From an uncultured Gammaproteobacteria bacterium (GTDB lineage Bacteria > Pseudomonadota > Gammaproteobacteria > Steroidobacterales > Steroidobacteraceae), in contig CAWDFR010000010.1 in the NCBI GenBank assembly GCA_963801685.1, forward strand, positions 104,375 to 168,374: a stretch of DNA of 64,000 bases, in the 5' to 3' direction. Position 1 is the first letter of the stretch, and the number at the start of each line of letters is the position of its first letter. Below the pieces are notes generated by a model. It saw nothing but the letters and a program-made list of their open reading frames with translations. It searched no databases and was not told the DNA's origin. This document shows, in pieces, positions 3,292-40,369 of this stretch. The position numbers and the translations under genes were made by a program.

Positions 3292-4764
3292 ATGCCGCTT
3301 TCCGTCGTCATACTCGCCGCGGGACAGGGCAAGCGCATGAACTCGGACCTGCCCAAGGTCCTGCAGCCGCTCGCGGGACAGCCGCTCCTGCAGCATGTGA
3401 TCCGCACCGCCCGCGCGCTCAATCCGGCGAACGTGTACGTGGTGTACGGGCATGGCGGTCCGCAGGTGCGTGCCGCGTTCGACCACGAGGAGGTCGACTG
3501 GGTGCTGCAGGCGGAGCAGCTCGGCACCGGGCACGCCGTCATGCAAGCCATGTCCGCCATTCCCGACGACCATACCGTCCTCGTGCTTTATGGCGACGTA
3601 CCGTTGATACGGGCCGCCACGCTCCAGGCGCTGACCGTCGCGGCGAACACGGGGGCGCTCGCCATCCTGTCCGTCAGACTCGATCAGGCGGCGGGTTACG
3701 GCCGCATCGTGCGCGACCCGATGGGCCTGGTGCGGGCCATCGTCGAGCACAAGGACGCGAGCGCCGACGAGCTGATGATCAAGGAAGCCAACTCCGGACT
3801 GATGGCGGCCCCCGCCGGACGCCTGCGGGGCTGGCTCCTCGGGCTCGGCACGGAGAATTCCCAGCGCGAGTATTACCTCACCGACGTCGTCGGCCTCGCC
3901 GTGAAAGCCGGGGACCGCGTCGAGGCCGTGCTTGCGCCGAGCGCCACCGAGGTGCTCGGCGTCAACGACCGCATCCAGCTTGCGGAAGTCGAGACATGCT
4001 ACCGCATGGAACGGGCGCGCGAGCTGATGGTGGCCGGCGCCACGCTCGCGGATCCGGCGCGCATCGACGTGCGCGGCGGCGAGGTCTCCGTCGAGCGCGA
4101 CGTATTCATCGACGTGAACGCCGTGTTCATCGGCAAAGTCCATCTCGCGGCGCGCGTGAGGATCGGGCCCAACTGCCTCATCAAGGATGCCAGCATCGGC
4201 GCGGATACCGAGGTGTTCTCCAACTGCGTCATCGAAGACGCGCAGATCGGCGAACATTGCCGTGTCGGCCCGTTCGCGCGCTTGCGTCCGCGCACGCGTG
4301 CTCGCGCGCGGCGTGCACATCGGCAACTTCGTCGAAGTCAAGAACAGCGAGATCGGGCGCCGACAGCAAGGCGAATCATCTGAGCTATGTGGGCGACACG
4401 CGCGTGGGGAGTGGTGTCAACGTGGGCGCCGGCACGATCACATGCAATTACGACGGCGCCAACAAATGGCCCACCGAGATCGGCGACGGCGCCTTCATAG
4501 GCTCCGGCAGCATGCTCGTGGCTCCCGTGCGCATCGGCGGCCGGCGCGACCATCGGCGCCGGATCGACCATCGCTGCGAATGCTCCGCAGGGCAAGCTGA
4601 CGTTGACGCGTGCGCCGCAAGTCACGTCCTCGCGCTGGACCCGGCCGCGCAAGCTCGCCGCCGAGGAGCACGCGGCCGCGGTCGAGCGCGCCTTGAACGA
4701 GCCGCAAGGGGACACCGATCCCGCTGCGGGCACGGGCTCTCCCGACGCGGAGAAGGAGAGTTGA
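3292..4764 (+). CDS. glmU: Bifunctional GlcNAc-1-P uridyltransferase / GlcN-1-P acetyltransferase, frame broken three times
   Basis: The N-terminus reads [25 protein letters not shown]. The left-handed beta-helix part ([39 protein letters not shown]) continues through frames 1, 2, 0 and 1. The +1 changes are near 4292, 4356 and 4538. Confidence 0.9.
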
Positions 4765-30681: not shown

Positions 30682-31659
30682 TTAGATCAGATCCTTGACG
30701 CCGTCGCGCTCCTCGCTCAGCTCGCGGTGCGTGAGCTGCATCTTGTCGCGACTGAACGCGTCGATTTGCAGTCCCTTGACGATGGCGTACTTGCCGCCCT
30801 TGCAGGTGACGGGATAGGAATAGATCACGCCCTCCGGAATATCGTAGCTGCCGTCCGACGGCACGGCCATGCTGACCCAGTCCGCGTCGCGGCTGCCGAG
30901 CACCCAGTCGTGCATGTGATCGATGGCGGCGGACGCGGCGGATGCGGCCGAGGATGAGCCGCGCGCCTTGATGACGGCGGCCCCGCGCTGCTGCACGGTC
31001 GGAATGAAGGTCTGCTTGAACCAGCTTTCGCCCACTGCCGCCACCGCGGGCTTGCCGTCGACCGTCGCGTGATTCAGATCCGGGTACTGCGTGGCCGAGT
31101 GATTTCCCCAGATGATGACTTTCTTGATGTGCGCGAGTGCGGTCTCCGTCTTCTCGCTCAGTTGCGCGAGCGCGCGGTTGTGATCGAGACGCGTCATCGC
31201 CGTGAAACGATCGGGCGAGAGCGAGGGCGCGTTGCGCTGGGCAATCAGCGCGTTGGTGTTGGCCGGGTTACCCACCACCAGCACGCGCACATCACGGCTT
31301 GCGGCCGCATCGAGCGCCTTGCCCTGCGCGGAGAAGATCTTGGCATTCTCGAGCAGCAGATCCTTGCGCTCCATGCCCGGACCGCGCGGCCGCGCTCCGA
31401 CCAGCATGGCAACCTCGCAGTCCTTGAAGGCGACCCGCGCATCGTCGGTCGCCGTTACTTTGTTGAGCGTGAGGAACGCGCAATCGTTCAACTCCATCAC
31501 GACGCCCTGCACGGCCCCGAGCGCTGCAGGAATCTCGAGCAGGTTGAGATTGATGGGCTGATCGGCGCCGAGCATCTGCCCGGCGGCGATGCGAAAGGCG
31601 AGCGCATACCCGATGTTTCCGGCTGCGCCGGTGATGGTGACGGTGACTGGCTTTTTCAT
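30682..31659 (-). CDS. mdh: Malate dehydrogenase
   Basis: [60 protein letters not shown] and IWGNHS.TQYPD identify the long (LDH-like) MDH type. Confidence 0.95.
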
Positions 31660-31768
31660 GGGAAGAATCCTCGGCGAAGGAACGTGCAAAAGCGAGAAAT
31701 AGTAGCCGAGCCCGGCCTGCCGCGCTGCCCGCAGAGGGAGGCCGCCGAAGACTCCCGAAAAAAGCAGC

Positions 31769-31805
31769 TTGCATGTACTGGTGATTTACATTACTATATC
31801 ACCAG
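31769..31805 (+). promoter_or_regulatory. Promoter-like TTGCAT-N17-TACTAT overlapped by inverted repeat CTGGTGAT-N12-ATCACCAG (putative YtrA/GntR operator)
   Basis: The repeat arms are at 31778-31785 and 31798-31805. The element lies upstream of the micro-ORF, GntR and ABC operon. Confidence 0.45.
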
Positions 31806-31852
31806 GTTAGTGAAACACCCCGGCACCGCCGGTAACTGCAAGGAGAGACATC

Positions 31853-31990
31853 ATGGACACTCGCATATCCTCGAAAGTCGCCGCCCTCGCGCTCGCGTTG
31901 CTGATCAATGGCAGCCTCTTCGGCGGCGTCGCCTTCCTGTTCAGCGCAGAACGCGCCGCCGCGGCCGGCGTCACCCTGGTGGCGGCGTAA
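31853..31990 (+). CDS. 45-aa membrane micro-protein heading the GntR/ABC operon, not in the ORF track
   Basis: The RBS AAGGAGAG lies 6 nt before the ATG. The product reads MDTRISSKVAALALALLINGSLFGGVAFLFSAERAAAAGVTLVAA. Confidence 0.4.
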   Translation: MDTRISSKVAALALALLINGSLFGGVAFLFSAERAAAAGVTLVAA

Positions 31991-32066
31991 GCCGCCCCCT
32001 CAAGGCGTTCTGCTAGATTAGCGTGCTACTACGGCCCCTCCACTTGGCCCGGGCGCTGAGAGCGGC

Positions 32067-32459
32067 ATGGATCCCAATTGGAATGACAACCAGCCCATTT
32101 ATCGCCAGCTGCGCGATCGAATGGTCGCCCTGATTCTGGAAGGGGCGCTCAAGGAAGGCGATCCGCTGCCCTCGGTGCGTACGGTGGCTGCCGACTACCG
32201 GCTCAACCCCCTCACGGTGCTCAAGGGCTATCAGCAGCTGGTCGATGAAGGGCTGGTCGAGAAGCGCCGCGGGCGCGGCATGTACGTCAGCGACGGCGCG
32301 CGGCTTCAGCTGCTCAAGGGCGAGCGTGAGCGATTCCTCAGCGAGGAATGGCCGCAGATTCTCGCGGTCATCCATCGGCTGGGATTCTCCGCCGACGAAC
32401 TGTTCGCACAGACCCCCGCGCTCACGCACCCCGCGCCGCGTGTGGACAACAAGGAGTAG
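32067..32459 (+). CDS. GntR-family regulator, YtrA subfamily
   Basis: A 130-aa short effector domain protein. It reads PIYRQLRDRMVALILEGALKEGDPLPSVRTVAADYRLNPLTVLKGYQQLVDEGLVEKRRGRGMYV. Confidence 0.85.
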   Translation: MDPNWNDNQPIYRQLRDRMVALILEGALKEGDPLPSVRTVAADYRLNPLTVLKGYQQLVDEGLVEKRRGRGMYVSDGARLQLLKGERERFLSEEWPQILAVIHRLGFSADELFAQTPALTHPAPRVDNKE

Positions 32460-32462
32460 CCG

Positions 32463-33333
32463 ATGATGTCGTCCTCACCCCTCATCGAAGCACGCGGCCT
32501 GTCGAAGCGATACGGCTCGTTCGTCGCCCTCGATCGTGCGGACTTCGTCGTGCAGCCGGGCCGCATCGTCGGCCTCATCGGCCCGAATGGCGCGGGCAAG
32601 ACCACGGCGCTGCGCGCGGTGCTCGGGCTCACGACTTATGAGGGCGAGCTCAACGTCCTCGGCCGCGAGCCGTTCGCCGAGCGCGCGCTGCTCATGCAGG
32701 AGGCGAGCTTCATCGCGGACGTCGCCGTATTGCCCGAGTGGCTGCGCGTCCAGCAAGCGATCGATTTCGTCGCCGGGGTGCATCCGCGATTCCGCCGCGA
32801 GCGCGCCGCGGCGCTGCTCGCCAAGACCGACATCGGCACGCGCAGGCGCATCGGCCAGCTGTCGAAGGGCATGAAGACCATGGTGCATCTCGCGCTCACC
32901 ATGGCCATCGACGCTCGCCTGCTCGTCCTCGACGAGCCGACGCTCGGCCTGGACATCATCGCGCGGCGCGGCTTCTACGATGCACTGGTGAACGATTACA
33001 TGGACGAGACCCGCACCATCGTGATCACCACCCATCAGGTCGAAGAGGTCGAGAACTTGTTGACCGACGTGCTCTTCATCGACAAGGGACGCATCGTTCT
33101 CGATTGCTCCGTCGAGGACATCGGCGCGCGCTATGCGGCCGTCGAGGTTGCCGACGACCGCGATCGCGGCCGCCCGCGAGGAGCGGCCTTTCTACGAGCG
33201 CCGAGCCCTCGGCAAGACGCTGTTGTACTTCGAGGGTGCGGACCGGGACAAGCTCAAGGGCCTCGGTGAAGTCGGCGTGCCGAGCGTCGCCGACCTGTTC
33301 GTCGCCAAGGTCTCGGCGGAGCGTGCGGCATGA
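32463..33333 (+). CDS. ABC transporter ATP-binding protein, frame broken once
   Basis: The Walker A is GPNGAGKTT, the signature is LSKGMK and the Walker B is LLVLDEPT. The +1 change is near 33148. The stop overlaps the next gene start (ATGA). Confidence 0.85.
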
Positions 33334-34184
33334 ACGATTTCATCTGGCTGGTTCGCCGGGAGTTCTGGGAAAACAAGGCCATCTGGGTGATGCCGGCATG
33401 TATCGGAGCGCTGATGGTCGTGGGCGCGCTGTTCGGCAGGGTGGAGGTCTCCCTGCTGCACGAGACCGACCAGCAGAGCGAGGTGGCGGGCGAGCTGTTC
33501 CTGCTCGCGATCGCGGGCGTGTTCTGGGTGGCAATGAGCATCTACTCCATCTGGTACCTGCTCGACTGCCTGTACGCCGAGCGCAAGGACCGCAGCGTTC
33601 TTTTCTTCAAATCGTTGCCGCTCACCGACTCGGCCACGGTGTTCTCGAAGCTGTTCGTCGCCGTCATCGCGATTCCCCTGGTCTATTTCGCGGCCGCCGA
33701 TATCTCCGCCCTGTTGATGACCTTCGTGATCTCCGTGCGGGCGCGTCTGGGGTTCGGCAACATCCTCTGGCACCCCGAGCTGTGGCTGCAGCAGCAAGTT
33801 CTGTGGCTGTACGTGATCGCCACCGGCATTGTCTGGTACTTGCCCGTCGTCGGCTGGCTGCTGCTCGTCTCGGCATGGGCCAAGCGCGCGGTCATTCTGC
33901 AAGCAATTCTGCCGCCGCTCGCGATCATTCTCGCCGAGCGTGTGTTCCTCGGCACGCACGTCGCGGCGCTGCTCTTTCGAGATCGGCTCCTCGGCGGCAC
34001 CTACGCCTCGCTCCACCATCCGATCCACTGGTCGTTCCAGAAAGGCGAGATGTCGCCGGGCCTGTGGCAACTGCCGGACCCGGTGGGCTTTGTCTCGAGT
34101 GTGGACGTCTGGATCGGCGCGCTCATCGGCGCGGCTTTCATCGCGGGCGCCGTGCAATTGCGCAAGCGCCGCACCGACGCGTAG
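33330..34184 (+). CDS. ABC-2-type multi-pass membrane protein (permease partner)
   Basis: An intact 284-aa ORF with about six hydrophobic segments. It is translationally coupled to the ATPase. Confidence 0.65.
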   Translation: MNDFIWLVRREFWENKAIWVMPACIGALMVVGALFGRVEVSLLHETDQQSEVAGELFLLAIAGVFWVAMSIYSIWYLLDCLYAERKDRSVLFFKSLPLTDSATVFSKLFVAVIAIPLVYFAAADISALLMTFVISVRARLGFGNILWHPELWLQQQVLWLYVIATGIVWYLPVVGWLLLVSAWAKRAVILQAILPPLAIILAERVFLGTHVAALLFRDRLLGGTYASLHHPIHWSFQKGEMSPGLWQLPDPVGFVSSVDVWIGALIGAAFIAGAVQLRKRRTDA

Positions 34185-34250
34185 CGCGCTTTTGCTTCCT
34201 CGGCAAGCAGTGCAGAATAGCGCCCCGGGGATGCCGTCCAGGAGCGCTGC

Positions 34251-34733
34251 ATGTACAAGACCAAGATCGACCTCTCCGAAAAGACCCGGCGTAACGTCAT
34301 TGTCATACTCAATGATCGCTTGAGCGATGCGATCGACTTGCAGAGCCAGGTCAAACAGGCGCACTGGAATGTCAAAGGCCCGCATTTCATCGCCTTGCAC
34401 GAGCTGTTCGACAAGATTTCGGACGCCATGCTGGAGCAGATCGACGAGATCGCGGAGCGCATCACCAGCTTGGGAGGCACCGCCGAAGGGACGGTGGCGG
34501 TGGCCGCGCGGCGCAGCAAGCTCAAGAATTATCCGTTGAGCATCACCTCGGGCAGGGACCACCTGCTCTATCTATCGACCCAGTTGTCGGTCTACGGCAA
34601 GTCGGTGCGCGGCGCGATCGAGGCGACTGCGGACTTGAGCGATGCAGACACGGCCGACCTCTTTACCCAGCTGTCGCGCGAGATCGACAAATATCTCTGG
34701 TTCCTCGAGGCGCACCTGCAGGACAAGGCCTGA
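34251..34733 (+). CDS. dps: Dps, DNA starvation/stationary-phase protection protein
   Basis: It reads LNDRLSDAIDLQSQVKQAHWNVKGPHFIALHELFD...DEIAERITSLGG...DLFTQLSREIDKYLWFLEAHL. Confidence 0.9.
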   Translation: MYKTKIDLSEKTRRNVIVILNDRLSDAIDLQSQVKQAHWNVKGPHFIALHELFDKISDAMLEQIDEIAERITSLGGTAEGTVAVAARRSKLKNYPLSITSGRDHLLYLSTQLSVYGKSVRGAIEATADLSDADTADLFTQLSREIDKYLWFLEAHLQDKA

Positions 34734-34780
34734 CGCTGTTAACGCGACCCTCGCGATCGGCCGCAGTTATGGCGATCCGG

Positions 34781-36153
34781 CTACGTCTCGAGCAGGTGCG
34801 CGAAGTAGCTGTTGCAGAGCCGGTTGAGCGGGTCGGTGCGCTGGCGCAGCGCCCGGAACAGCTTGACGCGATCGCCGAAGGCCTTGGCGACGTGCTCGGG
34901 TTTCAACGCTCGCGACTGATTGAACGTCGGCACACCGCCGAGCGCGGACGCGAAATCGTTGAAGTCGATCAGGAACTCGTCCCAGCCGCGGTCGCCCGTC
35001 GAGGAGGGCTCGAGCGTGATCATGGGTCCCTGGAAGCTCACGCTGAAGAGCGACGAGCGGTCCTGGTGCAGACGGCTCGCGCCGTTCACGACGTTGCAGC
35101 GATAGCCGTGCTGCTTGTAGTACGAGCGGCAGAACGCGAAGTACTCGGCGAGCAGTTTCGGGAAATCCGGCCTGCGGAAAGCCCCACAAGGTGTAGGTGT
35201 AGCGCGATCTCCACGCCTCCTGCGGAAAGTCGCGGATCCACTCGTGCGCGTACATGACGACGCTGCGCGCGGCGCGGTCGAGCGTCGCGCGCAGCGCCCG
35301 CTGCACGCCGGAGACGACGGCTCCCGCGACGCCGGGCGCGGCGAGCACGCTGCCGACCGTCGAGCCGAACGCCGGCAGCACGTTGCGCATGACGGATTTC
35401 TTGATTTGCCAGATGCCGGAGCGGCTCGTGGCCGCGCTCTCGTCGGGGGTGCGCCGCTCGACCGTGATCTGGTCGTGGAACGGCGAGATGTGCAGGCGCA
35501 GTGCGCCAGGCGACGCGACGATCTTCGCAGAAGCGCGCGCCGAACTCCTTGAGCGTCAGCACCTCGTGGTCGATTCTGCACGGGAACGAGCGGTTGCACA
35601 CGCAGCACCACCTCGTGCACCACGCCCAGGAGCCCGAAGCTCGAGCTCAGCACGCGCATCAGGTCCGCGTTGCGCTCGGTCACGGTCATCAGCTTGCCCT
35701 GCGGCGTGATGAGCTTCAGCTCTTTGACGAGCGCCGACATCTGCGCGGGGCCCTGTGCCTGCGAGGCCTGCGGCAGCGTCGTCACGGCCACGGCGCCCAC
35801 CGTCATCTGTCCCATCTCGGGCGTGAGCGGCAGCTCTTGACCGCGCTCCGCGAGCGCGCGCACGAGCGCACCCACGCGTACGCCGGCCTGGCACCGCACC
35901 TCGTCCTCGCCGAATTCGATGATCTTGCCGAGCGGGCTCAGGTTGACGGTCGTGCCGCCGTCGCCGCCGACGCAGCGCGTCTGCGAATAATCGCCGCCGA
36001 CGAAGCGCACGGGCGTCGGGTAGTTTTTGGTGTTGGCGAGGATGGCCGGGATTTCCTCGGCGCGCTTCGCCTGCATGACGAGCCGCGGCCGACGATACAG
36101 ACCGGACGCGGCAGTGTCCGGACCGCGCGAACGATTCTGACTTTGACTACCAT
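34781..36153 (-). CDS. FAD-binding (PCMH-type) oxidoreductase with an ALO-like C-terminal domain, frame broken several times
   Basis: The N-terminus reads PRLVMQAKRAEEIPAILANTKNYPTPVRFVGGDYSQT...MGQMTVGAVAVTT...FGLLGVVHEVVLRV. The C-terminus reads FNDFASALGGVPTFNQSRAL...TDPLNRLCNSYFAHLL. The middle lies in other phases and the start is approximate. Confidence 0.65.
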
Positions 36154-36266
36154 GTTGTCCCCCACAATCCTCGAACGATCCTGGAAACGGTCTTGAAAGC
36201 CGTCGCAGATCAAGGAAAAAAGGACCGGGAGTGGGGACGCGGAATGCGCGCTCGGCGCATCGAGAA

Positions 36267-36357
36267 CTGGCGACCCCGCTATCGTCGAGCTTCCGAGGAA
36301 GCCCCTTAGACCGGTGGTTTTGCGTCCCCACCTTTCGGCGGGTTTGCCCTTGAACAG
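36267..36357 (-). promoter_or_regulatory. c-di-GMP-I (GEMM-I) riboswitch aptamer
   Basis: The minus-strand RNA reads CUGUUCAAGGGCAAACC-CGCC-GAAA-GGUG-GGGACGCAAAACCACCGGUCUAA-GGGGCUUC-CUCG-GAAGCUC-GACGAUAGCGGGGUCGCCAG. This matches the conserved core and two-hairpin architecture of the V. cholerae Vc2 aptamer as I recall it. It lies in the 247-nt leader of the oxidoreductase gene. Confidence 0.8.
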
Positions 36358-36400
36358 CCCCCCTACTATGCGAGCAGCCGGGGGATAAGTAAAGCTCTTT

Positions 36401-38391
36401 TTATCCCATCAAGAGCAATGTCTCGGCGTGCTCGACGGCCTCGGGCGGCCCGCACACCACGACGACGTCGCCTTCCTTGAAAACCGTGTCCGCGACGGGC
36501 TCCCGGCCCACGATTCCGTCGCGCCGCACGGCGCTCACGGCGACCTGCGAGCCCCGCTCGGCGAGCTCCGCGATGCTCTTTCCCACCGCCCAAGCATGCG
36601 GCGGCAGCACCACGCTGTGAAGCTCTTCACGAAATGCGTGATTGTCATCCAGGAATTCGGCACCGGACTTGCGGAAGTACTGGCGCAGCATCACGTAGCG
36701 ATGGCTGCGGATGTCGTTCACGGTGCGGATGACCTGCGGCATCGGGAGCTTGAGCAGCAGCAACAGATGCGAGAGCAGCATGAGGCTCGCCTCGAACGTC
36801 TCCGGCACCACCTCGGTGGCGCCCGCGGCCTGCAGCTCCTCGAGCCGCAAGTCGTCCTGGGTGCGCACCAGCACGGGCACGTCGCCGCGCAAGCGCGCGC
36901 ACCGCGCGCAGGATTCGCAAGGACACGGCGGGGTTCGCGAAGGTGATGACGACGCAGCGCGCCTGCGCGAGGCCCACGTTCTGCAGCACCTCGAGCTGGC
37001 CGGCATCGCCGTACATGACCGGATCGCCCGCCTGCCGGCCCGCGCGCATGCGGTAGGTGTCGAGATCGAGGGCGATGTACTCGAAGCCCGTCTGCTCGAG
37101 CACGCGCGCGATGTTCTGTCCCACGCGTCCGAATCCGCAGATCACCACGTGATCGCGCTCGGCGACGGCGAGCGTGACGCGCGCCTCGCGCATCGCCTCG
37201 GTTTGCGGCGGCCCCGACTCGCGCAGGAGCGCACGCGTGATGCGCCGGTTGTGGCGGATCACGAAGGGCGAGACCATCATGCAGAGCACGGTCGCGGCGA
37301 GCAGCGGCTGCACGACGGCGGGATCGGCCAGCTCGCGTCGCAGCAGTAGGGTCAGCAGCGCGAAGCCGAACTCCCCGCCCTGGCTCACGACCACGCCGGT
37401 GCGCAGCGACTTGAACCAGCTGCTGGTCACGGGCTTCGCCGCCACCGCGACCACCGCCGTCTTCAGCATCGCCATGCCCGAGAACGATCGCGCTCACCAG
37501 CGGCAAGGTTGCGCAGCAACAGCGGCACGTCGAGCATCATGCCGAGCGTGATGAAGAACACGCCGAGCAGCACCTCGCGGTACGAGCGGATGGTCGCCTC
37601 GATCTGATGGCGGAACTCGGTCTCCGCGAGCCCCATGCCGGCGAGGAAGGCGCCGAGCGCGAGCGACAGTCCGGCGGCCTGCGTCGCCCATGCCGAGGAG
37701 AGCACCGCGAGCAGCACGGCGAGCGAGAACAGCTCGCTCGAGCGCACCCCCGCGATGAGGACGAACAGCGGGCGCAGCAGCCAGCGACCGGTCGCGAGCA
37801 CGAGCAGGAGCGCCGCCGCGGCGATGCGCGATGGCCGCGACGACGTGCGGACGCGGGCGTGCCCGGGCCGGCTGCCGCGAGCGGCGACAGCAGGCCGAGA
37901 AACAAGGGAAAGCTCAGGTCCTGGAACAGGCAGATCGCCACCGCGAGCCGGCCGTGCGTGCGCGTGTTCTCGGATTGCTCGGTGAGCTGGGCGATGATGA
38001 TGGCGGTCGAGGACATCGCGACGGCGCCGCCGACGACCACCGCGGAGGTCGGTGCGACCCCGAACAGCCGACGCCGCCGCGACGCGCGACGATCGCCGTG
38101 GTCACGAGCACCTGCGCGCCGCCCACGCCGAGCACCTCGCCGCGCATGGCGAGCAGGCGCGGCAGCGAGAATTCCAGCCCGAGCGTGAACACCAGGAACG
38201 CCACGCCGATATCGGCGAGCAGGCGCGTCGTGTCGTTGTCGACCGACCAGCGCGAGCGCGTGCGGGCCGAGCAGCATGCCGACCGCGAGGTAACCGAGGA
38301 TCGCCGGCAAGGCGAGCTTGCGCACGCCGGCCACGACGAATACCGAGGCGGCCAGCAGGATCAGAATCTGCAGCAGCGGATCGGTGTGCAT
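36401..38391 (-). CDS. CPA2-family K+/H+ antiporter with RCK (TrkA-N and TrkA-C) domains, Kef/YbaL-like, frame broken many times
   Basis: The N-terminus reads MHTDPLLQILILLAASVFVVAGVRKLALPAILGYLAVGMLLGPHAL, followed by LGLEFSLPRLLAMR and MSSTAIIIAQL. The Rossmann block is VVICGFGRVGQNIARVLE. The C-terminal RCK part ends in LLLMG. Confidence 0.8.
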
Positions 38392-38408
38392 TCTCGTAGC
38401 ATATAGCG

Positions 38409-39536
38409 ATGGATGCGTTGGCGCTGCAACGGGACGGCGAGGGCTGGCGAATCGATTTGCGCGGCGACTGGTCGCTCGAGGCTCTGCCGCGCATCGATCT
38501 CGAGCTCGAGGCGCTGCCCGGCCGCGATGAGCGGAACTCTGGTGTGCGATTGGTCGCGAGTCGAGCATCCCGGCATCGGTCCGGTGTGGGCGCTGCTCAC
38601 GCGTCTGTCCGAGCTCGGCAGCGAGCGGCAGCTCGCCGTGCGGCACGAGGGCAATCCGCCGCACACCGTGCAGCTGCTGCAAAAGCTGCAGCGCGAGCTC
38701 TGCACCGCGCATGGCACGCGCGCCTGGCGGTGCCCAACCGCGAAGGCGTCGTCGAGCAAGCTCGGCCGCTGGACGGTGCTGCAGGGAACGGAGGCCGGCC
38801 GCTTGCTCGGCTTTTTCGGGCGCATCGCCGCCGTTCTCGGGGAGAGCTTCTCGCGTCCGCGGGTCCTGCGGCTGTCATCGATCGCGCGGCACGTTCAGGA
38901 GACCGGCGTGAGCGCCATCCCCATCGTCTCGCTCATCGCGTTTCTCATCAGCGTGGTGGTCGCGTACTCGGCGCGCAGCAGCTCGCGAGGTTCGGCGCCA
39001 CGATCTTCGTGGTCGACCTCGTCACCATCGCCGTGCTGCGCGAGATGGGCGTGCTGCTCACCGCCATCATCGTCGCGGGCCGCTCCGGCAGCGCGTTCGC
39101 CGCGGAGATCGGCGTCATGCAGCTCAACGAGGAGATCGATGCCCTGCGCGCGATGGGCATGAACCCGATCGAGCTTCTGGTCGTGCCGCGCGTGATCGGC
39201 CTCGTCATCGCACTGCCCTGCCTCACCGTCATCGCGGACGCCATGGGACTCGCGGGCGGCGGACTTCTGTCGCTGGTCCAGCTGCACATCCCGCCCGCGC
39301 AGTTCACCATCCGGATGCGCGAGGCGCTGTCGTCGACGACGTTCTGGGCGGGCATGGTGAAGGCGCCGGTGTTCGCGCTGCTCATCGGCATGGTCGGTGC
39401 GTACCGCGGCATGCAGGTGCGCGATTCGGCGCGCGAGCTCGGGCGCCTGACCACCATGGCGGTCGTGCAATCGATCTTCCTGGTGATTCTCGCGGACGCG
39501 TTCTTCGCCGTCCTGTTCGAGCAGATCGACTTCTGA
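38409..39536 (+). CDS. MlaE-family ABC permease with an N-terminal STAS-like extension, frame broken at least twice
   Basis: It reads ETGVSAIPIVSLIAFLISVVVA...FVVDLVTIAVLREMGVLLTAIIVAGRSGSAFAAEIGVMQLNEEIDALRAMG...TTMAVVQSIFLVILADAFFAVLF. Confidence 0.8.
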   Translation: MDALALQRDGEGWRIDLRGDWSLEALPRIDLELEALPGRDERNSGVRLVASRASRHRSGVGAAHASVRARQRAAARRAARGQSAAHRAAAAKAAARALHRAWHARLAVPNREGVVEQARPLDGAAGNGGRPLARLFRAHRRRSRGELLASAGPAAVIDRAARSGDRRERHPHRLAHRVSHQRGGRVLGAQQLARFGATIFVVDLVTIAVLREMGVLLTAIIVAGRSGSAFAAEIGVMQLNEEIDALRAMGMNPIELLVVPRVIGLVIALPCLTVIADAMGLAGGGLLSLVQLHIPPAQFTIRMREALSSTTFWAGMVKAPVFALLIGMVGAYRGMQVRDSARELGRLTTMAVVQSIFLVILADAFFAVLFEQIDF

Positions 39537-40369
39537 TGGAGCCGCGCGATCCCGTTGCAGAGGCGCCGGACAACGATCTGGTCGTGCGCGTTCGCGGCCT
39601 GGTGAACCGCTTCGGCAGCCAGGTCGTGCACGACGGACTTGTCGTTCGAGGTCCGGCGCAACGAGATCATGGGCATCGTCGGCGGCTCCGGAGCGGGCAA
39701 GTCGGTACTGCTTCGCACCATCCTCGGCCTGCACGAGCCGCAGGCGGGAACCGTCGAGGTCTTCGGCCGGAACATCCACGAGCTCTCGCCGGCCGAGCGC
39801 CTCGCCATGTCGCGCGCCTACGGCGTCACGTTCCAGAGCGGCGCGCTGATCTCCTCGCTGTCGCGTCGCGGAGAACATCCAGCTGCCGCTGCGCGAAGCC
39901 TATTCGCTGCCGGAAGAGCGTGCTCGACGAGCTGGTGCAGCTCAATTTGAGCCTGGTGGGTCTCGCGCCCGGACGACGCCGAGAAATATCCCGCGCAGCT
40001 CTCCGGCGGCATGGTCAAGCGCGCGGCGCTCGCGCGCGCACTCGAGCCTCGAGCCGAAGCTTCTGTTCCTCGACGAGCCGACCTCGGGACTCGACCCGAT
40101 TTCCGCGGCGGACTTCGATGCGCTACTGTTGTACCTTCACGCCGAGCTCAAGCTCACGGTGGTCATGATCACGCACGACCTCGACAGCCTGTTCCGAACC
40201 TGCGACCGCGTCAGCGTGATCGTGGACGGCCGCATGGTGACCGATACGCTCCCGGGCATCCTCGCCAGAGCACGAATCCTTGGATACACGAGTATTTCCA
40301 CGGACCGCGTGCGCGCGCCGCGGAGCCGCGGCCGCGGGCGGGACCGTTGCGGAGGCGCCGCATGGATAG
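39536..40369 (+). CDS. MlaF-like ABC ATP-binding protein, frame broken about six times
   Basis: The Walker A is GGSGAGKS, the signature is LSGGMVKR and the Walker B is LLFLDEPTSGLDP. VVMITHDLDS and a C-terminal PWIHEYFHG follow. The first four junctions are all +1. The 3' end is approximate. Confidence 0.75.

Follow-up and report, generated by a model that had tools for sequence, protein, structure and literature searches.

A class-I c-di-GMP riboswitch upstream of a flavoenzyme gene in uncultured Steroidobacteraceae, a probable translational OFF switch

The stretch of DNA analysed here, which we call the window, is 64 kb long and comes from an uncultured member of the Steroidobacteraceae (Gammaproteobacteria); on its minus strand, the leader of a flavoenzyme gene carries an aptamer of the GEMM-I class, the class-I sensor of cyclic di-GMP (c-di-GMP). 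We judge it likely that this is a canonical GEMM-I riboswitch in front of a monocistronic gene, and that it acts as a translational OFF switch through which high c-di-GMP lowers synthesis of the enzyme. A preliminary description of this DNA had named a GEMM-I riboswitch here and asked whether orthologous oxidoreductase genes carry the same leader. They do: a search for relatives of the enzyme found 128, one genome per species, and among the best 80 of these 128, which were fetched with their flanks, the leader lies directly upstream of the orthologous flavin adenine dinucleotide (FAD)-binding gene in 80/80 Steroidobacteraceae-type genomes, with the nhmmer match ending at the ortholog's start codon. 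All 80 loci come from metagenome-assembled genomes (MAGs), mostly labelled Steroidobacteraceae or just Gammaproteobacteria, a few with other bin labels, and these species-level genomes span 69-96% protein identity. Seventy-nine leaders could be anchored on the aptamer ends and the start codon, and these were used for the duplex and folding counts given below.

The aptamer, its leader and its ligand

When the whole window was scanned with Rfam 15 at gathering thresholds, the only match was to RF01051 (c-di-GMP-I/GEMM-I), at 36266-36358 on the minus strand, with 71.7 bits against a gathering score of 35, an E-value of 4e-12 and coverage of model positions 1-87 of 87. This is the minus-strand RF01051 match that the preliminary description had anticipated, and the minus-strand sequence that it quoted for 36154-36357 is exact. 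Judged by the covariance model and by its structural hallmarks, the element is a genuine class-I c-di-GMP riboswitch. The first hairpin, P1a (36327-36342), is CCCGCC-GAAA-GGUGGG, a stem of 6 base pairs (bp) with a GNRA loop, flanked by 3-nucleotide (nt) internal loops, AAA and GAC, and then by a 2-bp G-C clamp, so that the Rfam alignment reads GC / AAA / CCCGCC-GAAA-GGUGGG / GAC / GC. The second helix, P2 (also P1b; 36271-36319), is ACC-A-CCGGUC...GAU-AG-CGGGGU and carries a receptor-like UCUAAG and a 7-bp tip hairpin, GGGCUUC-CUCG-GAAGCUC. UCUAAG ... A.G falls on the RF01051 columns CUAAg ... AuG, the receptor-like sequence that goes with a GAAA loop in P1, and the two may dock. The linker between P1 and P2, virtually always AAA in GEMM RNAs (PMC1950547), is AAA here as well (GACGC-AAA-ACC in the window), and GACGCAAA is invariant in the 79 anchored leaders.

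Comparison across species leads to the same structure. Given 77 distinct orthologous aptamers, which are nearly invariant, RNAalifold finds P1a and P2 unprompted: P1a columns 19-24 pair with 29-34, one pair varying between G.U, G-C and A-U, and in P2 the outer stem is invariant while the tip hairpin covaries, with compensatory double changes at 7 tip pairs. In the 81-leader alignment the aptamer hardly changes; the spacer, the platform hairpin H1 and the region before the Shine-Dalgarno (SD) sequence diverge freely. Of 16 orthologous loci sampled with Rfam, 15 pass a gathering threshold in the same clan and the last, L018, is truncated where its contig ends. The aptamer of L003, the window's closest relative and clean in sequence, is identical and scores the same 71.7 bits.

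The layout of the leader is that of a 5' regulatory element. The aptamer ends 112 nt upstream of the conserved ATG on the same strand, with a promoter upstream, and all 80 orthologous loci (80/80) are alike in this. The stop codon of the upstream Kef-like, TrkA_C-containing open reading frame (ORF) lies at 36401-36403 and the flavoenzyme ATG at 36153-36151, which reproduces exactly the 247-nt gap of the preliminary description; the start codon (36151-36153) is conserved in the leader alignment, and orthologs begin MVVKV.... The SD region GUGGGGGAC occupies 36157-36165, the position at which GTGGGGGAC had been quoted, with its G-run at 36159-36163, 5 nt before the ATG. It is conserved among orthologs, and a G-run of 4-6, placed 5-8 nt ahead of the start codon, is present in all 79 anchored leaders. 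A promoter-like site at 36365-36393 comprises a -35 element TTTACT (36393-36388), a 17-nt spacer and a -10 element CATAGT (36370-36365); the pattern CTTTAC(A/T)-N17-CATAGTA is conserved in the 81-leader alignment about 8-10 nt past the Kef stop. In the orthologous locus L069 a promoter scanner found TTTACA-17-CATAGT with 9/12 matches, against 0.1 sites expected in shuffles; the window's copy has only 8/12 matches and the scanner made no call there. Transcription is predicted to start near 36358, the first base of the Rfam match, and the riboswitch RNA would then have essentially no 5' extension.

Which cyclic dinucleotide the aptamer senses can be judged from its contact bases, and these are canonical (AAGGGCAAAC, GACGCAAA and AGCGGGG) in the window and in all orthologs. 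The equivalent of G20 in Vc2, the Vibrio cholerae type example, falls in the GGG at 36347-36349, within AAGGGCAAAC; the A47 equivalent is the A at 36321 (GACGC-A) and the C92 equivalent the C at 36278 (AGC), with the same bases in orthologs. This presumed mapping of G20, A47 and C92 is our own count against the Vc2 sequence; all three candidate positions for G20 are G. In structural work G20 reads one guanine of c-di-GMP and C92 pairs with the other, and GEMM-Ib RNAs specific for cyclic GMP-AMP (cGAMP) have A20 (PMC6140456). A G at this position therefore indicates c-di-GMP, where an A would indicate cGAMP. By these bases, the window aptamer and its orthologs are ordinary c-di-GMP-I aptamers, and it is from them that we infer ligand binding.

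It is hardly credible, in our judgement, that the aptamer instead senses another cyclic dinucleotide, be it the 3'3'-cGAMP of GEMM-Ib RNAs or whatever the c-di-GMP-I-GGC class binds. What brings that idea up is that 11/15 orthologous leaders (L001, L013, L015, L023, L025, L032, L053, L055, L062, L069 and L072) score best on RF03167, the c-di-GMP-I-GGC model, with 60-71 bits (gathering score 59); the aptamers so labelled lie at ~3800-3920 in their loci (~2950-3050 in L053). The RF03167 consensus, GACGCGAA, has a diagnostic G, however, and at this position the window and all 79 anchored leaders have A (GACGCAAA); when L069 is aligned to RF03167, the mismatch falls precisely on the diagnostic G column. 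'GGC' is said to name the three contact bases, as Weinberg and colleagues reportedly put it in PNAS in 2017. The G20 equivalent is moreover G rather than A, and the window's own best model is RF01051, which won the clan competition over one unnamed same-clan match whose score was not displayed. The orthologs thus appear to resemble RF03167 in overall sequence yet to be without its diagnostic base, and automated annotation by Rfam clan competition would mislabel many canonical c-di-GMP-I aptamers as the 'GGC' variant.

The expression platform and the direction of the switch

Downstream of the aptamer, the leader holds sequences that can pair back onto it. The preliminary description had pointed to a 10-nt switch sequence complementary to the aptamer, and this is exact: GCGTCCCCAC (36231-36240) is the perfect reverse complement of the aptamer segment GTGGGGACGC (36322-36331). 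The complement is part of a longer element, switch element 1, which reads CGCGUCCCCACUC (36228-36241; GCGUCCCCAC in the preliminary description) and has two alternative partners, the aptamer core AGGUGGGGACGCA (36333-36321) and, with imperfect pairing, the SD region. With the core, RNAduplex gives -24.3 kcal/mol in the window (z -3.2), and 1/100 shuffles did as well. The window's clade comprises 7 leaders, the window and six relatives, and GCGUCC(C/U) is kept in 7/7. The same switch had also been called a complement of the SD segment. Such pairing is possible, but it is not the perfect complement claimed: the reverse complement of GUGGGGGAC is GUCCCCCAC, the switch reads GUCCCCAC, and one G must bulge. 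The switch:SD duplex in the window comes to -19.3 kcal/mol, a value that 13/100 dinucleotide shuffles equal, and is not unusual alone.

A second arm lies further downstream. Switch element 2, UUUUUUCC(C)UUGAUCUGC (36205-36221), is complementary to the aptamer 5' end GCUGUUCAAGGGCAAA (36358-36343), and RNAalifold returns the pairing of UUUUUUCCCUUGAUCUGC with this segment in 7/7 leaders of the window's clade; in clade members the duplex reaches -15 to -18 kcal/mol, with z down to -3.1 (RNAduplex). The window is one C short here in comparison with all six relatives. Between aptamer and switch stands hairpin H1, AUGCGC-CGAGC-GCGCAU (36244-36260), which is predicted in every fold; a hairpin occupies its position in all clades, with differing sequences and some compensatory changes.

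Switch element 2 contains the T6/U6 run that the preliminary description had located, correctly, at 36216-36221 and had thought might add transcriptional control, a suggestion that found no support. One could imagine the U-run and an upstream helix forming a ligand-dependent intrinsic terminator, or Rho-dependent termination, and a Rho effect secondary to translational repression is conceivable; all the same, we consider transcriptional control improbable. A scanner found no terminator-like sites in the window between 35900 and 36700 or in L069 between 3650 and 4100. The U-run follows the GCGUCCCCAC helix at a distance of 11 nt, L001 and L002 have just U4, and the U4 of the majority clade sits within a stem. 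We rejected U6 as a terminator on the negative scan and because the run, together with the CCCUUGAUCUGC that follows it, is complementary to the aptamer 5' end, such that pairing with aptamer CAAA in the second anti-aptamer helix explains it better.

How other species arrange their platforms was assessed with an RNAduplex partner search in each leader, platform against aptamer core (AGGUGGGGACGCAAAACCA) and against the SD/AUG region, with 100 dinucleotide shuffles. In most species the aptamer core and the SD have the same best partner, the element CGGUUUUGUGCCCCC, which is complementary to GGGGACGCAAAACC but for one A.C mismatch and sets its C-run opposite the GGGGGG of the SD. The element of the window's clade, CGCGUCCCCAC, targets GUGGGGACGC in a register different from that of the majority, and the majority equivalent of the second arm is GUGCCCCC-GACAGC against GCUGU...GGGC, so that two clades reach the same aptamer segment by way of different platform sequences. 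Over the 79 leaders the best platform partner of the aptamer core has a median of -21.7 kcal/mol and a median z of -2.2, and in 46/79 the core duplex is matched by no more than 5/100 dinucleotide shuffles. The footprints of the aptamer-core and SD partners overlap by at least 4 nt in 69/79, and in 76/79 the core switch starts 5' of the partner of the aptamer 5' segment, which fits a nested topology. Where the aptamer has GGUGGGG the switch has CCCCAC, and where it has GGCGGGG (L007-L010) the switch has CGCC. The platform anatomy, as read from these complementarities, is one of two arms in the window's clade and one shared arm elsewhere. The leaders L007, L008, L009 and L010, which come from four independent MAGs, are also peculiar in that the 6-bp P1a has an A.C mismatch (CCCACC/GGCGGG) where others have G.U, G-C or A-U, and in this clade the downstream switch is changed to CGCGUCCGCGCCC.

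The direction of the switch was approached by ensemble folding, in which the bound state was represented by enforcing the Rfam helices and keeping the junction bases unpaired. An earlier constraint, the RNAfold minimum free energy (MFE) structure of the isolated aptamer, was often a non-native GEMM-I fold; the Rfam-helix version led to the same conclusions. With the aptamer enforced, the median unpaired probability of the SD G-run is 0.02, against 0.18 unconstrained (79 leaders). The SD is less open with the aptamer enforced in 68/79, no leader shows the opposite by more than 0.2, and the Wilcoxon p is 3e-12. Left unconstrained, the window forms the anti-aptamer helix in both MFE structure and ensemble (P = 1.0). 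Adopting the native aptamer fold takes +6.3 kcal/mol in the window and a median of +3.7 across leaders, a gap that in these models could plausibly be paid by ligand binding. Complementarity conserved in 79 leaders and constrained-ensemble folding together support the three-way competition between aptamer, switch and SD that the preliminary description had put forward.

We picture the switch as follows. The RNA would start at the conserved sigma-70-like promoter, that is, at the 5' edge of the aptamer. Without ligand, C/U-rich platform elements would invade the aptamer: in the window's clade GCGUCCCCAC would pair with GUGGGGACGC and UUUUUUCC(C)UUGAUCUGC with GCUGUUCAAGGGCAAA, and in most other species the single element GGUUUUGUGCCCCC-GACAGC would pair with the same aptamer segments. 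The C-run would then be tied up, the G-rich SD comparatively free and the gene translated. With c-di-GMP bound, the aptamer would be locked and keep its G-strand, and the released C-run would pair with the SD GGGGG and block ribosome binding. If this model is true, changing GCGUCCCC to GCGAGGGC would leave the gene constitutively OFF or deregulated. An OFF direction has a precedent in a passage of a preprint in which Vc2 is described as a c-di-GMP off-switch (bioRxiv 10.1101/617340).

Several points count against this model. It is computational throughout, with both binding and regulation predicted, and the window's own leader contains indel errors. With an unpaired probability of 0.15 in the window, the SD is only modestly open even when unconstrained, and a small dynamic range is predicted accordingly. 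Taken individually, the SD duplex is unremarkable (median z -0.9), and complementarity between a C-run and a G-run is not very informative. For the majority-clade platform RNAalifold gave local hairpins and no long-range switch:SD helix, and for this reason the helix rests on single-sequence folding and duplex analysis. No clear covariation was seen in the switch:SD pairing (UGUGC/GCACA versus variants); with so little variation in the aptamer core and the SD, the alternative helices can hardly be put to a true covariation test. Finally, the 79 leaders are phylogenetically related, and the counts and the Wilcoxon p overstate their independence.

The local hairpins of the majority clade, for example in L069 at 3899-4006, are CRRAACC-N4-GGUUUUG and CUUCC-GGGG-GGAAG. 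The 5' strand of the former mimics the aptamer CAAAACC, and the latter sets the SD G-run in a tetraloop. The latter also bears on the opposite reading, that the same riboswitch is an ON switch in which c-di-GMP would free the SD, either because the ligand-free anti-aptamer fold nucleates a larger occluding structure or because the local CUUCC-GGGG-GGAAG hairpin truly represses. That majority-clade SD hairpin is conserved and its relation to the ligand state ambiguous, the SD is still largely paired in the window's unconstrained MFE structure, where its unpaired probability is the 0.15 given above, and many GEMM-I ON switches have been described (PMC1950547, PMC9262584). Even so, an ON switch seems unlikely to us, if less so than transcriptional control: lifting the aptamer constraint opens the SD in 68/79 leaders, with no change above 0.2 the other way, and a C-run for which the aptamer G-strand and the SD compete makes for OFF logic. 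An OFF switch thus remains the reading that we prefer.

The flavoenzyme gene, its frameshifts and its neighbours

The regulated gene (34781-36153, minus strand) encodes an FAD-binding oxidoreductase of VAO/PCMH type with an ALO-like C-terminus; Pfam finds an N-terminal FAD_binding_4 domain (E 7e-17) and, weakly, the ALO-type C-terminus, in agreement with the PCMH/ALO-like flavoenzyme first proposed. Its nearest solved or curated relatives are the FAD-binding protein 8ot8, xylitol oxidase, L-galactono-1,4-lactone dehydrogenase, bact_FAD_ox, sugar-lactone-oxidase subfamilies and DprE1. Searches of PDB, NCBIfam and Pfam gave placement at the superfamily level only, with families far below curated cutoffs and matches confined to the FAD domain. 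The product represents an uncharacterised family within the VAO/PCMH superfamily, and its similarities suggest a distant relationship to alditol oxidases, aldonolactone oxidases and DprE1. A structure model of the enzyme from a 7-sequence alignment had a predicted local distance difference test (pLDDT) score of 32 and was unusable. The FAD domain carries the motif GGDYSQT (P0003 residues ~50-58; ~36000 in the window). Aldonolactone and alditol oxidases usually carry, at the position of GGDYSQT, a histidine for covalent FAD attachment, and the motif hints at non-covalent FAD and dehydrogenase-like chemistry.

Besides the switch direction, the conserved promoter and the far longer anti-aptamer complement, the preliminary description had also missed the frameshifts in the gene. 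The ATG at 36153, which it had taken as the start, is out of frame in this window with the long flavoenzyme ORF (34781-36331), the middle of which reads like a wrong-frame translation. Four 1-nt frameshifts are present in the gene, a deletion at ~36139 and insertions at ~35579, ~35530 and ~35163. Joined up, three frames yield a protein of 430 aa, which along its whole length shares 94% identity with intact proteins of 428-456 aa; those that are named in their source are Steroidobacteraceae FAD-binding proteins. The longer orthologs begin MVVKVNRSRGPDTAASGLYRRPRLVMQAK, and the ortholog start reads MVVKV(Q)NRSRG..., from which it follows that the ATG is a real, conserved start and that the window is one base short at ~36139.

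One might take four frameshifts and an ATG out of frame with the main ORF as signs of a relic riboswitch, decaying ahead of a pseudogene. This is very unlikely, and we rejected the pseudogene reading because the indels are window-wide. The adjoining Kef-like gene (~36401-38712) is broken in the same way, running over at least three frames in the window where L001 has an intact 660-aa ORF; against L001, L002, L003 and L006, at 87-94% identity, 1-nt indels of both signs run along ~9 kb (30769-40164), beyond homopolymers too. The aptamer is intact, scoring the same 71.7 bits as in clean L003, and orthologs are intact in 80 genomes. Judging from this pattern, the indels are most likely sequencing or assembly errors rather than gene decay. 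The leader is affected as well, the window being without single bases at ~36213, ~36192 and ~36181 in comparison with L003, and the window is for this reason too indel-ridden for base-exact statements on this copy to be free of some risk. The L003 contig itself (DATHPE010000019.1, 1655 nt) is binned as 'Solirubrobacteraceae' (Actinomycetota), where the other relatives are mostly Steroidobacteraceae/Gammaproteobacteria, and it is probably mis-binned.

An intact ferritin-like gene of Dps/bacterioferritin type (34251-34733, plus strand) is convergent with the flavoenzyme gene, which is therefore monocistronic. L001, L002 and L006 share this synteny (Kef, riboswitch-flavoenzyme, ferritin). A functional link, in redox or electrophile stress, would be speculation.

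Known systems and the place of this riboswitch among them

The element shares much with the RF01051 type example Vc2, which lies upstream of tfoY in V. cholerae: a P1 of 2 bp and 6 bp, with internal loops of 3 nt and GAAA as its tetraloop, AAA as the linker, a receptor-like CUAAG in P2, the bases equivalent to G20, A47 and C92, and a position in the 5' untranslated region. The two may also agree in direction, Vc2 being reported, in the preprint passage mentioned above, as an off-switch, and OFF being predicted here. They differ in host, since the Steroidobacteraceae are not linked to this riboswitch in the literature that we searched (our search found no paper linking c-di-GMP riboswitches to Steroidobacter), and in target, which here is a VAO-type flavoenzyme and not a motility, pili, chitin, competence or cytochrome gene. 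They differ, too, in the platform, where a C-run is shared by the aptamer G-strand and the SD and a second anti-aptamer arm is directed against the aptamer 5' end. GEMM-associated genes are mostly tied to the extracellular environment, membranes and motility (PMC1950547), and the preliminary description's view of this gene as an atypical GEMM target agrees with these published associations.

Other relatives can be placed in the same manner. To the c-di-GMP-I-GGC RNAs of RF03167 there is high overall similarity, with many orthologous leaders above that gathering score, but the diagnostic G at the A47 equivalent (GACGCGAA) is replaced by A in all copies here. The 3'3'-cGAMP riboswitches of GEMM-Ib, such as Geobacter Gs1761, have fold and clan in common with our element; theirs is an A at the G20 equivalent, whereas here it is G. 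In Clostridioides difficile Cd1 and Bacillus Bc1/Bc2, as is predicted here, a single GEMM-I aptamer controls the downstream gene, and Cd1 is an OFF switch; those systems use intrinsic terminators, whereas none is detectable here and SD sequestration is predicted. The riboswitch class is thoroughly studied and the predicted platform, SD sequestration, is of a standard type; the gene association is unusual and the mechanism ordinary. What is new is the host lineage, the platform anatomy and the tight link, in 80 or more species-level genomes, with a single uncharacterised flavoenzyme.

In the Steroidobacteraceae, a lineage abundant in soil and peat, a canonical c-di-GMP sensor is thus tied to one flavoenzyme in no fewer than 80 species-level genomes. 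The genes that a riboswitch accompanies show directly what the regulon of its second messenger contains, and the association marks this flavoenzyme as a conserved c-di-GMP output outside motility, adhesion and biofilm matrix and offers a handle on the function of the enzyme. The leader set is also a natural comparison, of one-arm and two-arm platforms aimed at the same aptamer segments. We tentatively propose that in the Steroidobacteraceae c-di-GMP may directly repress a lineage-wide, deeply conserved VAO-type flavoenzyme by means of a two-armed anti-aptamer/anti-SD platform, which would be an unrecognised metabolic or redox output of the second messenger. If this proposal is true, the output could be the oxidation of sugars or polyols, linked with planktonic life, or it could be the remodelling of envelope sugars.

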